From: a virus
Length of the DNA stretch: 43,895 bases
UHGV virus genome: UHGV-0356621
Direction: 5' to 3' (one strand)
Shown here: piece by piece, positions 1,289 to 14,596 of the stretch
Numbering within the stretch: the first letter of the stretch is position 1
How the letters are laid out: every line of letters starts with the position of its first letter
The notes under the pieces: model-generated
Told to the model about the DNA's origin: nothing
The model's database searches: none
What the model saw: only the letters and a program-made list of their open reading frames with translations
Made by a program: the position numbers and the translations under genes

Positions 1289-2449
1289 TCAGAATCCTAA
1301 TGCAAACCAGCGGAAACCGTCTGCTGGAGTTGCTGTTGATACCCATGAGAAGAAGAAATTGACATCAGAGTTAGAAATGGCACCAACCTGAGAAAAAACA
1401 TCAATACCGGCATTTCCTGACAAATTGGACGGGGTTGCCATTGCCATCAAGGAGAAATTCGGGAACGGTGTTGGGAAAATAACGTTTTGCACCCCTTCTG
1501 GTATAGACTTTAAAACAGCGCCCCATTGAATTATTAACCCACCAGAAACGTCTGGAATGCGGACAAAATCATTCGCTGCAAAATTTCTCTTTGGAAGAAA
1601 TGATTTCAGGCCGCTGGCATCTACCATTTTTTTAGCCGTACCCGACTGAATATCAGCGGCGGTAGCGATCGGCCCCAATCCCAAACCTGAAAGTACTCCC
1701 GCTGCATCACTCCTGCCGAGTATTGTTCTTGCGAATGCTGTCAGATCGGTTATTGCTACAGTATCTTCGCCAGTGAAGTAAGGTAATTTATTTGCTGAAC
1801 TTGCCAGGGCTGCAATGGCAGTTAAAGTTGCATCCAGTGGTTGTTTCCCATTCAGCAATTCAGTTATGCCAAGGTAGTTCACGATATCAGCAATTTTTTC
1901 TGCCGCCACGACTGTGCGCCCAACGGTTGTAATTCCAGAAAGTCTGGCTGTGTTGCTGTCGTCAAAAAAAGGAAAACTGTTCCCAATGCCATTCAGCGTT
2001 GCGAGCTGCTTTAAACCAAGGTATGTGAGAATGTCAGCAATAGTATTTTTCCCGATAATGTCACGGCCAACAGAAGTTAAATCAGTCTGCGCTGCTGTAT
2101 CATTTCCAGTGAAATATGGGAGTTTATTTGCACCTGTTGCGAGCCCAGCTAATGCCGTCAGCGTGGCGTCAAGCGCCTGGAAATCCTTACCGAACGCGGC
2201 GGACATTTTGGTGATAAACCCGTTCAGGTCACCATCATCAAGCACGTCCAGCCCGCTTTTGTTAGCGGTGTACTGCGCCAACGCTGCCGCTATAAAGCTG
2301 GCCTGTCGAATGGCTTTGTTTACCTGCGCACTGGATGCCTTTCCTGCCATGAATCCAGAGAGTAGAGCCGGAAGTGTTTCCCAGTCAGCCTGGGCTGTCA
2401 CGTTAGCGTTAGGATCAATCGCAAACGCTTTAAAGTTATTTGTTGCCAT
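1289..2449 (-). CDS. Tail fibre protein, distal part, with P2 gpH-like tandem repeat
   Basis: Two copies of LDATLTA(L/I)A.LA...NKLPYFTG.DT...TDLT..R.I.G...A..L.YLGL, matching the KDATLTALAGLATAADRFPYFTGND segment of P2 gpH as I recall it; ATG verified with AAGGAA RBS. Confidence 0.75.
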   Translation of the reverse strand: MATNNFKAFAIDPNANVTAQADWETLPALLSGFMAGKASSAQVNKAIRQASFIAAALAQYTANKSGLDVLDDGDLNGFITKMSAAFGKDFQALDATLTALAGLATGANKLPYFTGNDTAAQTDLTSVGRDIIGKNTIADILTYLGLKQLATLNGIGNSFPFFDDSNTARLSGITTVGRTVVAAEKIADIVNYLGITELLNGKQPLDATLTAIAALASSANKLPYFTGEDTVAITDLTAFARTILGRSDAAGVLSGLGLGPIATAADIQSGTAKKMVDASGLKSFLPKRNFAANDFVRIPDVSGGLIIQWGAVLKSIPEGVQNVIFPTPFPNFSLMAMATPSNLSGNAGIDVFSQVGAISNSDVNFFFSWVSTATPADGFRWFALGF

Positions 2450-2458
2450 TTTTATTCC

Positions 2459-2761
2459 TTAAGCCCAGACGCGAGCCAGTGTTTTCGGTGCAACCACAAA
2501 GTCGTTCAGCCCGGATAAATCGAGCGAGTCATTCATGACCCGCAAATTGGCGTGATAGCCGGGTTCGGTGGTGTACTTGATAACTTCGTTTTCCTCGCCG
2601 GAATTGATAACTTCAGCAGGAACAGTGATAACGCCGACGATATCCAGGCTGATATCAGGGTGATAAAAACCACCCTGTCCCTCATCATCCACAAACCCCG
2701 CCGCGATTAATTGCGTGCGCATTTGGTTGGCGTCATTAAAGCGCAGATATAAGTCTCTCAT
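2459..2761 (-). CDS. Hypothetical tail-fibre-associated protein
   Basis: 100-aa ORF between the two fibre genes; ATG overlaps the upstream stop (TAATG). No recognisable motif. Confidence 0.4.
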   Translation of the reverse strand: MRDLYLRFNDANQMRTQLIAAGFVDDEGQGGFYHPDISLDIVGVITVPAEVINSGEENEVIKYTTEPGYHANLRVMNDSLDLSGLNDFVVAPKTLARVWA

Positions 2762-9430: not shown

Positions 9431-10033
9431 TCATCCCCCGAATGCTGATGTAACGCTTCCGCCCAGCTGGCTCAGCAAGGATTCGTTTGGCGGTGTAGTG
9501 GATTTCATCCCGGAATTCTGCACCGCCGATGTGCTGACGCCATCCTGCATATCTGATTTATCTGCAACGCTAACGCTCTGCGTCTGCGACATGATCACTT
9601 CACGCAGGGTAAGCGTGCAGTTCAGCACGTTCTCGCTGGTTTTATCCGTTGTCACCTCGATGGCTCGCACCAGCATATTGCTGTAAACCCGCTTTCCGGT
9701 CACTACATCGAACGGCACCCGAGAGGACTGGAGATCCAGTAGTTGCTGATAGGTCTCTTTGGGGCTAAGTCCGGCGCTGAGGCCGATTGAAGATGTATCA
9801 ATGAAGTCCAGCAACGAACCGCCACCAGCGAAGCCGCATTCCATTGTGACTTCGCTGGGACGCTTATACGCATGATCGGCAATGAAACCCGATGCGCTAT
9901 TCGTTGTCGGCTTCTCCACCGGGTGCTCAGTAATTTCAAGCGCATCAGAATGCTTTTCGGAAACGACTACACTGGGGATGAGTATGCCAATTCGCCGGGA
10001 TTGCTGGCGAAAAATCGCTGATAAAATATCCAT
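9431..10033 (-). CDS. Hypothetical tail protein (downstream of tape measure)
   Basis: 200 aa, start overlaps the tape-measure stop; position as in Mu gp43-like proteins. Confidence 0.4.
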   Translation of the reverse strand: MDILSAIFRQQSRRIGILIPSVVVSEKHSDALEITEHPVEKPTTNSASGFIADHAYKRPSEVTMECGFAGGGSLLDFIDTSSIGLSAGLSPKETYQQLLDLQSSRVPFDVVTGKRVYSNMLVRAIEVTTDKTSENVLNCTLTLREVIMSQTQSVSVADKSDMQDGVSTSAVQNSGMKSTTPPNESLLSQLGGSVTSAFGG

Positions 10034-12048
10034 TAGCTATTTCTCGTGATGAGTTGCTGAGTTAGAACAGAGTTGACACTCCCTTGGCGTTCAGCTGAGA
10101 GACGAGCCGCTTCACGTGGGTCGGAAACACCGTGGATGTTAATGTTCGTTTCCTGCTGAATCACCGGGGCGCTGGTGGGCATATTGCTCATCACTTTCGG
10201 AATGTAGTTGCGCGTTTCCTGCGGCATTAGCCCCATGCCATAGCGCTGAACGTTGCCGATCCCCCAGTTATATGATGCCAGTGCTTTGCTAAGGTCTCCG
10301 CCGTTCTGCCGCAACAGCTGGCTGAGGTACTTAGCTGCGGCCTGAGCTGACTTTTGCGGGTCGAATACATCGTTTCCGCGAAGGCCCATGTCTCGCGCCG
10401 TGCCATCCATGAACTGGAACAGACCTTTAGCGCCAGCGCCTGAAACGGCGAACTGATTACCGCCAGATTCCGTTATGGCCACACTGCGCAATAACCCCTC
10501 CGGAAGCCGGTAGAGCTGTTCCAGGTTGGTAAGCATCGGCTGCATCCATCCCAGCAGTTCAGAGCCTGCTTTGGTTGGCTGTGGCCGCTTAACTGACTGG
10601 CCGAGCTGTTCAGGCTCATCATCACCGAACCAGCCGCGCACCGTTCGGCCCACGCTGCGAGGATCGAATCCCCAGTGCTCTTTAATCCAGTCGGCTGTAC
10701 CGTTGGCGCTGTCTGTTACCATCGGCATCGCTGACGGATTTTCGCTGCCCTGATTTAGCAGCTGTTTGCCTATACTAGCGGCCTGCGCCCAGTTGCCATC
10801 TTTTATGGCATTCAGCAAATCAGCGATCATGTTCAGCATCTTGCCGAACTCACCCATTTGCGAAATGAAGTTGCTAAAATCCCACTTTAGGGACCATGAC
10901 TTGGGGTCAATACCGAGCAACTTAGCCAGCGCTTTTGTCAGGTCCGTAACAGTCTTTTTCAGGTCACCAATCATTTTGACGGCCTGATCAATTTCAGTCT
11001 TCCATTTCCCCCAGTCAATCAGGCTTTTGCCACCTTCTTTCCACGTCTGGTAATCATCCAAGAGCAGACCAAGTGCAATAATAAGCGTCGTTATCATGCC
11101 CAAGGGTGATGACATGAAAGCGGTATTTAGCAGCCGCCATGCAACCAACAGCCCACTGAACAATGCGATAAGCTGCTGCGTGGCTGGGTTCAGCTTTTTG
11201 AACCAGGCGATCACACCCTCAACAGCTTGCCCAGTTCGCCATAACACGCGGGTAATCGCGTCACCTGCCCAGAGAATTCCTTTGATGATCTTCGTGATGA
11301 CCGCTTCAATCTTCGGCCAGTTGTCGAGTATCTGCCTGCGGAAGTTATCAATACTGCCAGCAAGGCCACCAGCTAGGTTAGAGCCAATCTTGTCTTTCGC
11401 CTGTCCAAGCGTCATCGTCAGATTACGCATGGAGGTCATGAAAATATTGGACTGTTTAGCCGCTGACTCAGCATTAAAACCAATACGCTTTGCCGTCAAC
11501 GCGTACTCAGAACTGAGCTGCCCCATCCCTCTGCGCATCGCCATCAGCGTGTTTTCATCGATGCCAAGCATCTGCGCGTATTGCTTCGCGCGGTAATACG
11601 GCATGTTGTTGAGCTTTTGCCCAACGCCAGTAAAGATGGCCGCAGTATCACGCATCTTTCCGCTGGCATCTCGGGTCTGGACACCCAGACGGTTCAGGAA
11701 GCCTTCCGCCCCCGGATTGCTACGCATGAAACCGGCCAGCCCTTCGAGGGAGGACATGGCCGACTCGGCGCTGGCACCGGTTTGCGACGCGGCATAGCCC
11801 AGCGCTTTGATGCCCTGGACGCTGGCCCCCGTCCGTTGGGATGCCCAGTAAATTTTATCCAGACCATTCGCGATCTGGGTGGTAAATCCGACAATGCTCA
11901 GCGCTGCGCCTTCCACCACCGCGCCGACCTTCAGAACGTTTGCGGTAACGCCTTTCAGCACGGCTTCAAACTTATTAGCGCCAGCCTGATCGATATCGAA
12001 TCCCAGCGAAACAAGGAAGTCTTTAATCGTATCTGCGTTACCGCTCAT
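10033..12048 (-). CDS. Tail tape measure protein with C-terminal lytic transglycosylase (SLT) domain
   Basis: 671 aa; hydrophobic central segments; C-terminal ITESGGNQFAVSGAGAKGLFQFM...YNWG matches the SLT catalytic region; follows the chaperone/frameshift gene. Confidence 0.8.
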   Translation of the reverse strand: MSGNADTIKDFLVSLGFDIDQAGANKFEAVLKGVTANVLKVGAVVEGAALSIVGFTTQIANGLDKIYWASQRTGASVQGIKALGYAASQTGASAESAMSSLEGLAGFMRSNPGAEGFLNRLGVQTRDASGKMRDTAAIFTGVGQKLNNMPYYRAKQYAQMLGIDENTLMAMRRGMGQLSSEYALTAKRIGFNAESAAKQSNIFMTSMRNLTMTLGQAKDKIGSNLAGGLAGSIDNFRRQILDNWPKIEAVITKIIKGILWAGDAITRVLWRTGQAVEGVIAWFKKLNPATQQLIALFSGLLVAWRLLNTAFMSSPLGMITTLIIALGLLLDDYQTWKEGGKSLIDWGKWKTEIDQAVKMIGDLKKTVTDLTKALAKLLGIDPKSWSLKWDFSNFISQMGEFGKMLNMIADLLNAIKDGNWAQAASIGKQLLNQGSENPSAMPMVTDSANGTADWIKEHWGFDPRSVGRTVRGWFGDDEPEQLGQSVKRPQPTKAGSELLGWMQPMLTNLEQLYRLPEGLLRSVAITESGGNQFAVSGAGAKGLFQFMDGTARDMGLRGNDVFDPQKSAQAAAKYLSQLLRQNGGDLSKALASYNWGIGNVQRYGMGLMPQETRNYIPKVMSNMPTSAPVIQQETNINIHGVSDPREAARLSAERQGSVNSVLTQQLITRNS

Positions 12049-12285
12049 TGGCCGCTCTCCATTTATCTACCCGGGCGTCGTTATCCTCGCGCATGTCGAG
12101 GTAGTCATTGAGAAGCGCGATACGGCAGAGGTCTACCGCACCGCTGTTAAGGTCTTTCTGGTCAATATGGAAGGCAAGCGCCGGACGAAGAATAAAGTCT
12201 TCACCGCCCGGCAGGCTGTTGAAGGTTATTCCGCTGGCGGGGTGGGCGTCTCGCTGGTAGGGAGTCCTTGCAAAAAATTTCCCAG
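12035..12285 (-). other. Predicted -1 programmed frameshift extension of the tail assembly chaperone (GT-like product)
   Basis: Slippery heptamer T_TTT_TTG in frame (codons AAT TTT TTG) about 15 codons before the chaperone stop; the -1 frame stays open for about 70 codons and ends at TAA just past the tape-measure ATG. Confidence 0.5.
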
Positions 12286-12651
12286 CGAGTCGGCGACCAC
12301 CCGCGCCACCAGTTGCAGCATGGTAAGCAGGTCGATATCGTCAAACGCCATTTCGCCATGCTGGCAGACCGGCACCCAGCCTTTCATGTGCTCGCGTGAA
12401 ACAACGGAAAGGCAGGGGAACAGGATAGCGTCAACGTCGCCATCGCTCAGATCGGACACAGCATTGGCAATCTTTGGCAGGATGGTAGCCATCGCGCCTT
12501 CGGTGTCTTTGCTGCTGATCTTCTCCTGAACGCTCCGGAAGTCAGAAACCATCCCGGCCAGCACCGGCAACAGCTTTCGGGACACCTTCAGCTGTTCGAA
12601 AACGCTGAGCTTTGCGGTGCGATATTTCACGCCTTTAATTTCGAATTCCAT
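12226..12651 (-). CDS. Tail assembly chaperone (G-like)
   Basis: 141 aa between tail tube and tape measure; ATG verified; contains a slippery site near its 3' end (see next feature). Confidence 0.6.
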   Translation of the reverse strand: MEFEIKGVKYRTAKLSVFEQLKVSRKLLPVLAGMVSDFRSVQEKISSKDTEGAMATILPKIANAVSDLSDGDVDAILFPCLSVVSREHMKGWVPVCQHGEMAFDDIDLLTMLQLVARVVADSLGNFLQGLPTSETPTPPAE

Positions 12652-12654
12652 GCG

Positions 12655-13095
12655 TTAAAACTCCCCGAGCAGCTGGTCAATCTTGCCGCAGTCGAATACC
12701 CAGGCGACGGTTCCGCCCTCTTTAGCGTTATTGAAATCAGGCTGTTTCTGGAATGCACACGAACGCGCAGTAGAAATATCACCCGATGCCGTGTTGCGAA
12801 TAACGATCACGTTATTGCCCCAGGTTGCAGAGGACTGGCTCTGCGCGTTGTACGCCAGCGACAGCTTCTTGTTTACCGGTGATGTTTTCAGCAGGGTGAC
12901 CGTGATTGTTCCGCTTTTCCCGGCGTGCAGGCTATGCATCACCTCGCCGCCAGCTCCGATCGTCATGGTGTTTTTGTTCTCGGTCATGGTGACCGTGATG
13001 CCCTCTTCCGAGTTGGCAGAGCCGTAACCGAGATCGATAACCCCAGTTGGTCCGGTCATGGACGCGGTGACATCTATAAAGCTATAGGTTGACAT
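12655..13095 (-). CDS. Tail tube protein
   Basis: 146 aa directly downstream of the sheath gene; ATG verified. Confidence 0.6.
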   Translation of the reverse strand: MSTYSFIDVTASMTGPTGVIDLGYGSANSEEGITVTMTENKNTMTIGAGGEVMHSLHAGKSGTITVTLLKTSPVNKKLSLAYNAQSQSSATWGNNVIVIRNTASGDISTARSCAFQKQPDFNNAKEGGTVAWVFDCGKIDQLLGEF

Positions 13096-13105
13096 TCATT
13101 GCTCC

Positions 13106-14596
13106 TTAGCGAACCACATTGATGAGGACATCAGCGAAGTGAATGGCGCCCGCCAGTTTCGCCGCCACCTGAATCACCGGAGCTTTACGCGCTTCGCGAT
13201 CTGCCTGCGCCTGAGAGTTGAGGGGATTCGCGTAAACGTAATAACCCTTTGTCAGCGTGTCGCCCGGAGCTAACTGGCCGATACTTCCGCCGTTCCATAA
13301 CCCCGGAGCAACCAGCCCGTTATTCACTGACTGATCCATCGACTGCTCGATGTTCGTCACCAGGCGTGTCACACCGGCTTCGGTTTGTGGGATTTTGGTG
13401 GTGGAGGTGTAAAGCAGATTCCAGAGGTTGTTCTGGACATAGTTCTGTAGCCAGTCGAGACCGTGGCGCTCATCGAAGAAATCACCGTTGCACATCACGC
13501 CTTCCTGGATGATGGCGGTGTCGTTGGTGTAGCGTACGAACACGTTGCAGTTTTTGGCCTTCAGCGTGTCTGCCTGCTGCGCGGTGATCGTCTCTGCAGC
13601 GATGCCGGGCTCCTGCTTGAACTTCAGGGTAATGGTGGTGTTATTGCCCAGGAAGTTCACGGTAAATGCCCGGCCAAATGCTGACGCCGCGGCATAAGGC
13701 ACCTGGCTGTACTGACAGAAGGTGCGGCCGTAGCCCGCCGCTTTCAGCTTGTAGGCAATATCCGTGGTACTGGTTGCATCCAGAACCGCCGATGCGGAAG
13801 TGGTTACACCATACACGCGGGAGTCACTTGCAGAGCCAATCAGCGCGGAAACATCGATATGGTTCTGATCTGTCATCGCCGTGTCGGCAATTACCAGGCC
13901 ATACCAGTCGGCGGAGTAGTTCAGGGCGGTAGTGACCGACGGGAGAACTGAAGAGGACGCCGCCTGGCCGTTTACCACCGTGGGGTTGTGTGCTGAATCA
14001 ATGCCCAGTAGTGGAGCCAGGTCGGTGCCGGTTCCCGCAGCCGTCGGGATCCCGATAGCAGACGCCGCCCCGGTGGTGGTCGAGGTGATAACGAACTGGC
14101 TGGAGCCAGCCACCCAGGACACCGTAGCGCCGGTCATCTTCGCTGTAATCGCCGTCGCGACGCCAGCAAGGTCGGTAACCGCCGAGAGGTTAATCGCGGT
14201 GAGCGTTACAACTGTGCCGTTAATCGAAAGCTTCAGAGCGCCAGCTGTCACCGCTGTGAAGTTCGACAGCGCCTTTTCAGCCGTGGAGAGGACAGCGCCG
14301 GTCAACTTGCCTGATGAGGCAGAGACAGAGGTGCGGGCCAGTTTGCCGATGTACAGATCGCGAGGCTGCGGCGACTGCTGGAAGTAAAGATTAGCCGCTT
14401 TGTACTCTTCAGCACTGGTGCCAAAGTCCGTAGCGACGCTTTCAATGCTCTGATAGAGGCGCATCACCTCTGGTGCGGTGATCACGCTGGACGTGCCAAG
14501 CACCAGCAGCGCCCCAAAGTTGCGCCCGGCCGCCGCACGAACGGCGAGCGACACCTGCACGTTCACGACGCGCTGGACAGATAAGCCGTTAGGCAT
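13106..14596 (-). CDS. Tail sheath protein
   Basis: 496 aa, first gene of the tail block, followed by tube, chaperone and tape measure as in Mu/P2; ATG verified. Confidence 0.7.

Follow-up and report, generated by a model that had tools for sequence, protein, structure and literature searches.

The tail assembly chaperone gene of the virus genome UHGV-0356621 very probably gives rise to two products by a programmed −1 ribosomal frameshift of the G/GT type, in a myophage or prophage. This reading rests on the anatomy of the locus, on the coding status and family of a −1-frame extension that has no independent start, on the selection acting on the slip tract and on the conservation of the two-frame layout, all of which were established by sequence analysis. 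Coordinates refer to the 43,895-nt stretch of UHGV-0356621 (the window), and every gene described here lies on its minus strand.

Gene order and the −1-frame extension

The chaperone gene is part of a tail operon with the gene order sheath, tube, chaperone, tape measure. The tail sheath protein (13106..14596, 496 aa) was recognized by Pfam DUF3383 (E=1.5e-140) and PHROG 205 'tail sheath' (E=1.7e-131), and the tail tube protein encoded directly upstream of the chaperone (12655..13095, 146 aa) by Pfam KPP10_Orf10 (E=3.2e-61), its homologue in Burkholderia phage Magia being labelled putative tail tube. The zero-frame product of the chaperone ORF (12226..12651, 141 aa, TAA stop at 12228..12226) matched Pfam Phage_TAC_15 (PF21822) with 114.9 bits against a gathering cut-off of 22 (E=4.4e-33) as well as PHROG 1688 'tail assembly chaperone' (E=3.4e-57). 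The tape measure protein (10033..12048, 671 aa) was assigned via PHROG 2276 'tail length tape measure protein' (E=1e-225) and carries an SLT lytic transglycosylase domain at its C-terminus (Pfam SLT, E=1.6e-24). The chaperone stop is separated from the start of the tape measure gene by 177 nt, which is unusual for the operon, whose neighbouring gaps vary between −1 and 11 nt.

The gap is spanned by a −1-frame extension of the chaperone ORF (12038..12273) and, as is characteristic of G/GT-type loci, two overlapping ORFs are placed between the tube and tape measure genes. The initial annotation had described this frame as open for about 70 codons and as ending just past the tape measure start; we found 77 open codons after the TTG codon of the slip site (100 codons from stop to stop), followed by a TAA at 12040..12038 that lies just beyond the tape measure ATG at 12048, so that start and extension end overlap (ATGAGCGGTAA). 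The ribosome binding site of the tape measure gene (GGAG, 12060..12057) falls within the conserved KWR codons of the extension. The fused product comprises 204 aa, of which residues 165–200 match DUF6889 (PF21829) with 41.6 bits against a gathering cut-off of 23.9 (E=1e-10), and the extension also matches PHROG 4364 (E=2e-17). No NCBIfam model matched the fused protein, no solved relative was found by sequence search or Foldseek search of the PDB, and literature searches on DUF6889 and Phage_TAC_15 returned nothing. In the AF2 model of a natural fusion (P0004) the chaperone domain is confident and the extension part is modelled as a flexible linker plus C-terminal helix only; in BFVD the model hit myophage proteins annotated as chaperones (E=4e-10).

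The mean pairwise difference within the extension amounted to 0.259/0.215/0.491 by codon position, and by this excess at the third position the extension codes for protein. In the dual-coding zone, which reaches from the slip site to the chaperone stop (12229..12270), it is the −1 frame that is constrained and not the zero frame. Over the 30 nt after TTG, the −1 frame showed a diversity by position of 0.405/0.314/0.504 and an amino-acid difference of 0.41, versus 0.314/0.504/0.405 and 0.63 for the zero frame.

For the comparison with relatives, an initial scan of viral contigs returned only sequences 95–100% identical to the window, which were unusable for covariation, and the sequence diversity was taken from a genome scan and a phage protein search. 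Loss of the extended frame in related phages had been named in the initial annotation as an observation that would speak against a frameshift; the extension was found in the −1 frame at 152 of 153 related loci. The lone exception (L110), which had looked like a +1-frame variant, carries a 5-nt duplication. The layout is kept in distant phages of Burkholderia, Acinetobacter, Ralstonia and Bordetella and, with phages of Edwardsiella and Providencia included, persists at ~29–40% identity, a conservation despite divergence that is likewise typical of the G/GT class. Seven −1 peptides from distant phages were furthermore all recognized by DUF6889 with scores above the cut-off. The distant phages retain a slippery heptamer or a T_TTT tetramer at the position homologous to LGNF, the site variants being GGA AAT TTT ATT in Acinetobacter, CCT TTT ATC in Burkholderia and GGA AAT ACT in Bordetella phages.

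The slippery tract and its surroundings

Near its 3′ end the chaperone gene reads CTG GGA AAT TTT TTG CAA. The heptamer T_TTT_TTG (12277..12271) is in phase as X_XXY_YYZ and lies inside the two-frame overlap, where a G/GT-type site is expected; its placement about 15 codons before the chaperone stop proved accurate, with 14 codons between TTG and TAA. A second in-phase heptamer, A_AAT_TTT (12280..12274), overlaps with it to form the compound slippery tract A_AAT_TTT_TTG (12271..12280), and a third one, G_GGA_AAT (12277..12283), resembles the lambda heptamer G_GGA_AAG. T_TTT_TTG, the only one named initially, is the last of these three overlapping in-phase heptamers. As a check on chance occurrence, in-phase heptamers were counted, yielding only 10 in 2,894 codons, 3 of them at the slip tract.

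Among 78 unique relatives, the synonymous-codon entropy of GGA/AAT/TTT/TTG was 0.10/0/0/0.10 bits versus about 1–1.9 bits in most flanking codons. The loci had been gathered with two patterns, one of which (DSLGNFL) fixes the amino acids at the site, and hence only synonymous positions are informative there. Conservation of the slippery site, suggested at the outset as a check on the frameshift, is evident at exactly these positions: the synonymous sites of the tract are fixed, and synonymous variation halts precisely at GGA AAT TTT TTG, a pattern that marks nucleotide-level selection on the slip tract. Dual coding, and not a slip signal, can account for some of the nucleotide conservation 3′ of the site.

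In analogy to lambda, G_GGA_AAT was considered as the main site and rejected. The Leu codon whose third base is the first G of this heptamer varies among relatives (CTG, TTG, CTT or CTC, with an entropy of 1.04 bits), and in this lineage G_GGA_AAT is unlikely to be the site under selection; in the Bordetella phage IFTN9 it is the sole remaining heptamer. The real slip site may be A_AAT_TTT, T_TTT_TTG or both, as the two are equally conserved. In E. coli reporter assays UUU, the A-site codon of A_AAT_TTT, was the more prone to shifting and U_UUG was a weak A-site tetramer, and U_UU.U_UU.G is absent from the 18 patterns selected by Sharma et al. The E/E+E′ genes of phage P2 shift at TTTTTTG without a downstream structure (Christie et al. 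2002, as described in PMC3091744).

Upstream of the slip site lies the Shine-Dalgarno-like sequence GGTGG (12297..12301), a candidate stimulator of frameshifting. Its spacing falls within the published range of 6–17 nt before the motif (criterion of 2014), and GGNGG occurs in this range in 100 of 111 unique relatives versus 13% of control positions. The Val codon at −6 is GTG in 96% of relatives, and the element is partly a by-product of conserved Arg-Val-Val codons.

The downstream stimulatory structure that the initial annotation had proposed to look for did not materialize in conserved form. In dnaX- and IS-type sites a hairpin or pseudoknot begins 4–10 nt after the motif. Folding single sequences of 70–140 nt gave z-scores from 0.27 to −1.87, and RNAalifold on 39 diverse relatives revealed no structure near the site and nothing in the first ~115 columns. 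A hairpin according to the published rule was no commoner in relatives (17 of 34) than at control positions (42 of 68), its size and offset were not consistent, and Rfam gave no match. A conserved structure of this kind was rejected on these four lines of analysis. An 8-bp inverted repeat flanking the slip site (CUCGCUGG at 12289..12282 and CCAGCGAG at 12257..12250) was treated as coincidental, because it is not kept in Klebsiella phage Mulock or several other relatives and the slip site would fall in its loop.

We tentatively raise the possibility of a compound signal, in which the tract A_AAU_UUU_UUG would offer two consecutive slip chances and the conserved upstream GGUGG would help, with no downstream structure involved.

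Alternative origins of the extended frame

The same protein (GNFFA) would result from transcriptional slippage, in which RNA polymerase adds one U at the T6 run in some mRNAs and the fusion is then made by normal translation. A six-T homopolymer is present at the site, and a natural T7 variant joins both frames at the DNA level exactly at the slip site, yielding an in-frame fusion with the junction GNFFA. However, slippage calls for a run of about 9 A or T, or for a shorter run with an adjacent nascent-RNA hairpin, and the run here is T6; efficient bacterial slippage has been reported at runs of 9 A or T, and at T5C5 none was detectable unless a special hairpin lay upstream (Atkins et al. 2016). 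Furthermore, the two-frame layout persists in relatives whose T run is only T4 or T5 or is missing altogether, it is the phase of the heptamer and not the run length that is conserved, and the identical TTTTTTG of P2 is described as a translational frameshift. We regard transcriptional slippage as very unlikely.

A separate small gene, with a start codon of its own or with ribosomes reinitiating after termination at the chaperone stop, is what public annotation implies: RefSeq calls a separate 'DUF6889 family protein' in E. coli prophages, databases hold 24 clusters of stand-alone DUF6889 proteins, and PHROG 4364 is a 54-aa family assembled from such stand-alone calls. These 24 clusters stand against 636 chaperone hits, though, and the annotated N-termini fall at eight different alignment columns, with M in place of an aligned I, L or T. 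The 100-codon −1 ORF contains a single canonical start (ATG, GTG or TTG), the ATG at 12094, which is only 18 codons away from the stop and has no Shine-Dalgarno sequence upstream, and the CDS called by NCBI's pipeline (PGAP) begins at ATA; a downstream −1 ORF lacking its own start codon and ribosome binding site is again a mark of the G/GT class. Constraint on the −1 frame sets in right behind the slip site, before the chaperone stop is reached, and a separate gene would not need the fixed synonymous sites of the slip tract. An independent gene is therefore extremely improbable.

That the open −1 frame and the heptamer are a coincidence or a remnant without a functional second product draws on the composition of the DNA (a stop frequency of 5.4% in the −1 frame of 10 neighbouring genes gives P = 0.014, about 1.4%, for 77 open codons, and the longest other −1 run in those genes has 78 codons), but this reading is effectively refuted by the comparative data, since the extension scores above the cut-off of a curated family, shows a pattern of purifying selection and keeps frame and position in phages of Enterobacterales, Burkholderia, Acinetobacter, Ralstonia and Bordetella.

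Proposed mechanism, known systems and annotation

Under the programmed −1 frameshift that we favour, most ribosomes would make the 141-aa chaperone and terminate at 12228..12226, and a minority, expected to amount to a few percent, would slip back by 1 nt on A_AAU_UUU_UUG (12280..12271), with the P- and A-site tRNAs re-pairing in the −1 frame. The shifted ribosomes would read 77 more codons and end at 12040..12038 over the tape measure start, giving a 204-aa product with an N-terminal chaperone domain and a C-terminal DUF6889 domain. The junction would read ...GNFF-ARTPY... for a slip on A_AAU_UUU and ...GNFL-ARTPY... for a slip on U_UUU_UUG. The predicted tryptic junction peptides are VVADSLGNFFAR (slip on A_AAU_UUU or G_GGA_AAU) and VVADSLGNFLAR (slip on U_UUU_UUG), and the predicted C-terminal tryptic peptide of the zero-frame product is VVADSLGNFLQGLPTSETPTPPAE. 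If the lambda pair gpG/gpGT is taken as a guide, the N-terminal portion common to both products would bind the tape measure protein and the portion read in the −1 frame would bring in the tube protein; tail assembly would need a fixed low ratio of the long to the short form. That ribosomes actually shift here, at which codon and how frequently they would do so and which partners the products would bind, we infer.

The G/GT-type class of tail assembly chaperone frameshifts was reportedly described by Xu, Hendrix and Duda in 2004, and the lambda pair gpG/gpGT is said to have been studied by Levin et al. in 1993 and by Xu, Hendrix and Duda in 2004, 2013 and 2014. The locus had initially been taken to match both lambda G/GT and P2 E/E′. 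This held for the layout and at the level of function and not for sequence homology, as Phage_TAC_15 and DUF6889 were the only Pfam hits when chaperone and fused product were scanned, with no detected homology to P2 E/E′ and no match to lambda-type chaperone or T-domain families.

The lambda pair has the same gene position, requires no RNA structure, forms its short product (G, ~140 aa) by termination and its long one by a low-level −1 shift leading to the tape measure gene. Lambda differs in being a siphophage that uses G_GGA_AAG, whereas the window has G_GGA_AAT with a first G varying among relatives; no sequence homology between the two was detected, and binding of tape measure and tube is presumed here. 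In the lambda paradigm, as described in the review of Atkins et al. 2016, mature virions contain neither G nor GT, and therefore absence of the fused product from virions would not refute a frameshift. With P2 the locus shares the contractile tail and enterobacterial hosts, a chaperone-like gene between tube and tape measure, the heptamer TTTTTTG near the end of the upstream ORF with no downstream structure in either, and an extension of about 50–77 codons ending at the tape measure gene. In contrast to P2, the proteins have 141/204 aa here and 91/142 aa there, and the A_AAT preceding the T run creates a second, conserved overlapping heptamer, to which the conserved upstream GGTGG is added.

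The closest parallels are found in two annotated phages. Mulock (CPT_Mulock_014/015) has the same protein families and gene order, an identical GGA AAT TTT TTG tract and a homologous −1 extension ending in ...KWREANER, although its nucleotide identity to the window in this region is ~71%. Magia (CPT_Magia_015/016) likewise shares protein families and gene order but has the heptamer C_CCT_TTT. The E. coli dnaX and IS911/IS3-type sites resemble the locus in combining a slippery heptamer with an upstream Shine-Dalgarno-like element at a spacing in line with published criteria; they differ in that a conserved downstream hairpin or pseudoknot is missing here and the heptamers are U-rich instead of A_AAA_AAG.

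The GenBank records of Mulock and Magia carry, as annotations, a joined CDS named 'tape measure chaperone frameshift product'; in the Mulock paper the frameshift does not come up. PGAP calls a separate "DUF6889" gene instead, and in RefSeq as in most phage records of the family the extension is poorly treated: the 177-nt gap is left empty or is filled with a protein, called "DUF6889 family protein" or even "lytic transglycosylase", whose non-ATG start is arbitrary. The frameshift class is already known and represented by the textbook cases lambda G/GT and P2 E/E+E′, so that the finding is correct but ordinary and its chief value lies in annotation. If DUF6889 is recognized as the C-terminal domain that Phage_TAC_15 chaperones gain through the −1 frame, hundreds of prophage annotations would be corrected, and a domain so far listed without a function would be given one. 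The overlapping heptamers together with the conserved upstream GGTGG would further provide a small natural test case for the tuning of structure-free bacterial −1 sites. If the tentative compound signal is real, DUF6889 would never be an independent protein but the T-domain equivalent of a large family of myophage chaperones, which public annotation would systematically split off with forced non-ATG starts.

Architecture of the probable frameshift site

The tail genes lie on the minus strand in the order tail sheath (14596..13106; Pfam DUF3383, PHROG "tail sheath"), tube (13095..12655; KPP10_Orf10/DUF3277), tail assembly chaperone (12651..12226, 141 aa; Phage_TAC_15, E=4.4e-33, PHROG 1688) and tape measure protein (12048..10033, 671 aa, C-terminal SLT domain). 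Chaperone and tape measure are separated by a "gap" of 177 nt versus -1 to 11 nt between neighbouring genes, which is out of character for such a tightly spaced operon. The 3' end of the chaperone gene reads CTG GGA AAT TTT TTG CAA. In accordance with the initial annotation, which had proposed a probable -1 programmed frameshift with the heptamer about 15 codons before the chaperone stop and about 70 open codons, T_TTT_TTG (12277..12271) is located in phase, 14 codons before the TAA of the chaperone, and the -1 frame remains open for 77 codons past TTG (100 codons stop-to-stop) until a TAA (12040..12038) that overlaps the start of the tape measure gene (ATG, 12048). What had been overlooked is a chain of overlapping in-phase heptamers, with G_GGA_AAT (12283..12277) and A_AAT_TTT (12280..12274) preceding T_TTT_TTG; three of the ten in-phase heptamers of 2,894 neighbouring codons fall at this site.

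A perfect 8-bp inverted repeat, CUCGCUGG (12282..12289, minus strand) and CCAGCGAG (12250..12257, minus strand), flanks the slip tract and would leave it in a 24-nt loop; as it is not conserved in Klebsiella phage Mulock and several other relatives, it is probably coincidental. The tape measure ribosome binding site GGAG (12060..12057) and the ATG are embedded in the final codons of the -1 extension (…D K W R A A N E R*; 12038..12060), so that its conserved KWR..NER C-terminus appears doubly constrained, by protein sequence and by translation initiation of the next gene. Due to the SLT lytic transglycosylase domain (residues 510–605), the tape measure protein presumably doubles as a cell-wall-degrading enzyme. 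The sheath comprises 496 aa versus 381–386 aa in close relatives and contains an insertion of ~115 aa (residues ~99–214, approximately 13955..14302) with a weak Flagellin_IN match (E=0.0044). Its flanks share just 49–67% protein identity with an E. coli ABWA45 prophage, versus 95% nucleotide identity in the chaperone region, which points to mosaicism and an additional surface domain.

Slip signal and candidate stimulator

The relatives comprised annotated phages and E. coli genomes, 80 viral contigs, 65 loci from a one-genome-per-species scan and individual distant phages. For 78 unique relatives the synonymous-codon entropy, which lies at ~1–1.9 bits for the majority of flanking codons, amounts to 0.10, 0, 0 and 0.10 bits at GGA, AAT, TTT and TTG, corroborating conservation of the slippery site. 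Together with the variable Leu codon immediately before GGA (CTG/TTG/CTT/CTC), this drop indicates that the selected nucleotides are A_AAT_TTT_TTG (12280..12271) and not G_GGA_AAT. Although the amino acids of the site are prescribed by one of the two scan patterns, codon choice is left free and all 149 non-distant loci match the anchor pattern, so that the result is not circular.

In distant phages a slippery element of different sequence is kept at the homologous LGNF position: C_CCT_TTT in Burkholderia phages Magia and BgManors32, G_GGA_AAT plus A_AAT_TTT in Acinetobacter, G_GGT_TTT plus T_TTT_TTC in Ralstonia, T_TTT_TTT in Providencia, G_GGA_AAT only in Bordetella, and a T_TTT tetramer only in vB_E192a and ZHS. 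The most widely shared feature is a UUU Phe codon in the A site with a U before it. In E. coli reporter assays the A-site tetramer U_UUU is far better than U_UUG, heptamers of the A_AAU_UUU class (R_RR.U_UU.Y) are noted to shift unexpectedly readily, and the 18 patterns selected do not include U_UU.U_UU.G (PMC4066793); P2 E/E+E′, on the other hand, shifts at exactly TTTTTTG (PMC3091744). We conclude that the tract would offer two overlapping chances to shift, either of which may dominate, with predicted products one residue apart (GNFF-A versus GNFL-A). Transcriptional slippage on the T6 run is an unlikely source of the frame change, since efficient slippage requires runs of ~9 according to the literature and the two-frame layout is retained in relatives with T4 or T5 runs or none.

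A conserved downstream structure stimulating the ribosomal shift was not found: single-sequence folds gave z-scores of 0.27 to −1.87, RNAalifold predicted no structure near the slip site from 39 sequences, a published hairpin rule held in 17/34 relatives versus 42/68 control positions and an Rfam search returned no match. Lambda and P2 likewise lack such a structure. Of 111 unique relatives, 100 carry an SD-like GGNGG within range, versus 13% of control positions, and 96% of relatives use GTG for the Val codon that forms it, making GGTGG (12297..12301, minus strand) a candidate stimulator, though in part it is a by-product of conserved Arg-Val-Val codons.

The extension as part of the chaperone

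The -1 peptide matches Pfam DUF6889 (E=1e-10, above the gathering cut-off) and PHROG 4364 (E=2e-17), and the DUF6889 cut-off is also passed by the -1 peptides of 7/7 distant phages (Burkholderia, Bordetella, Ralstonia, Acinetobacter, Edwardsiella, Providencia, Klebsiella). As anticipated for a genuine frameshift, the extended frame is conserved, lying in the chaperone's -1 frame at 152 of 153 loci. The sole exception (Enterobacter sp. R1(2018), locus L110) differs from the near-identical locus L107 by a 5-nt tandem duplication (GCCCG GCCCG) ~130 nt past the slip site, which breaks the frame inside the extension and probably reflects either prophage decay or misassembly. Mean pairwise differences by codon position are 0.259/0.215/0.491 (102 unique extension sequences, single-coding part). 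Within the first 30 nt past the slip site, which are open in both frames, a coding pattern is seen for the -1 frame (0.405/0.314/0.504, amino-acid difference 0.41) but not for the zero frame (0.314/0.504/0.405, amino-acid difference 0.63); selection thus tracks the -1 frame as soon as the slip site is passed, already upstream of the chaperone stop. These patterns argue for a conserved segment of a translated protein.

That the extension is a separate gene has to be rejected. The only ATG/GTG/TTG of the 100-codon -1 ORF in the window is an ATG 18 codons before its stop, and the PGAP "DUF6889 family protein" of a 95%-identical E. coli prophage (2368..2559 of locus L002) starts at ATA. Stand-alone DUF6889 clusters number only 24 in public databases versus 636 chaperone matches, with N-termini at eight different alignment columns and M usually in place of an aligned I, L or T. 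Such entries (P0121–P0141, from RefSeq and other sources; 46–75 aa, non-ATG starts, e.g. ATA) look like artefacts of the unannotated frameshift. Several carry the wrong label "lytic transglycosylase", as small adjoining ORFs are named probably because the tape measure bears the SLT domain; in SEN34 and other phage records the gap is left empty and the extension unannotated. A chance opening of the frame (P ~0.014 for 77 open -1 codons on composition alone) is excluded by conservation across relatives.

Fusion variant and known systems

Locus L159 (1501..2142; Logan SRR23924998), a natural variant, carries T7 for T6 at the slip site, whereby chaperone and DUF6889 form one 213-aa ORF. Its protein P0004 (a 16-member cluster) is fused at exactly the slip position (junction GNFFA) and shows the predicted fusion readable as a single continuous ORF. 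The T7 could stem from a genuine insertion into the homopolymer or from faulty assembly; the variant would produce the long form only. AlphaFold2 (28-sequence alignment) modelled the chaperone domain of P0004 confidently; in the extension it placed a linker of low confidence (139–184) that leads into a C-terminal helix (184–211). Foldseek found no solved relative of the model in the PDB; among predicted viral structures it matched annotated myophage tail assembly chaperones (best E=4e-10).

The likeness to lambda G/GT and P2 E/E' drawn initially holds for the mode of working but not for the sequence, as neither is a detectable homologue: the element would function like lambda gpG/gpGT, and P2 E/E+E′ shares both the heptamer and the missing downstream structure. 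Virion mass spectrometry, suggested for detecting the fused product, would be uninformative because lambda tail assembly chaperones are absent from mature virions. For Klebsiella phage Mulock and Burkholderia phage Magia, GenBank already shows the same predicted frameshift as a joined CDS. The practical consequence concerns annotation: in Phage_TAC_15 chaperones, DUF6889 is almost certainly the C-terminal domain encoded in the -1 frame.
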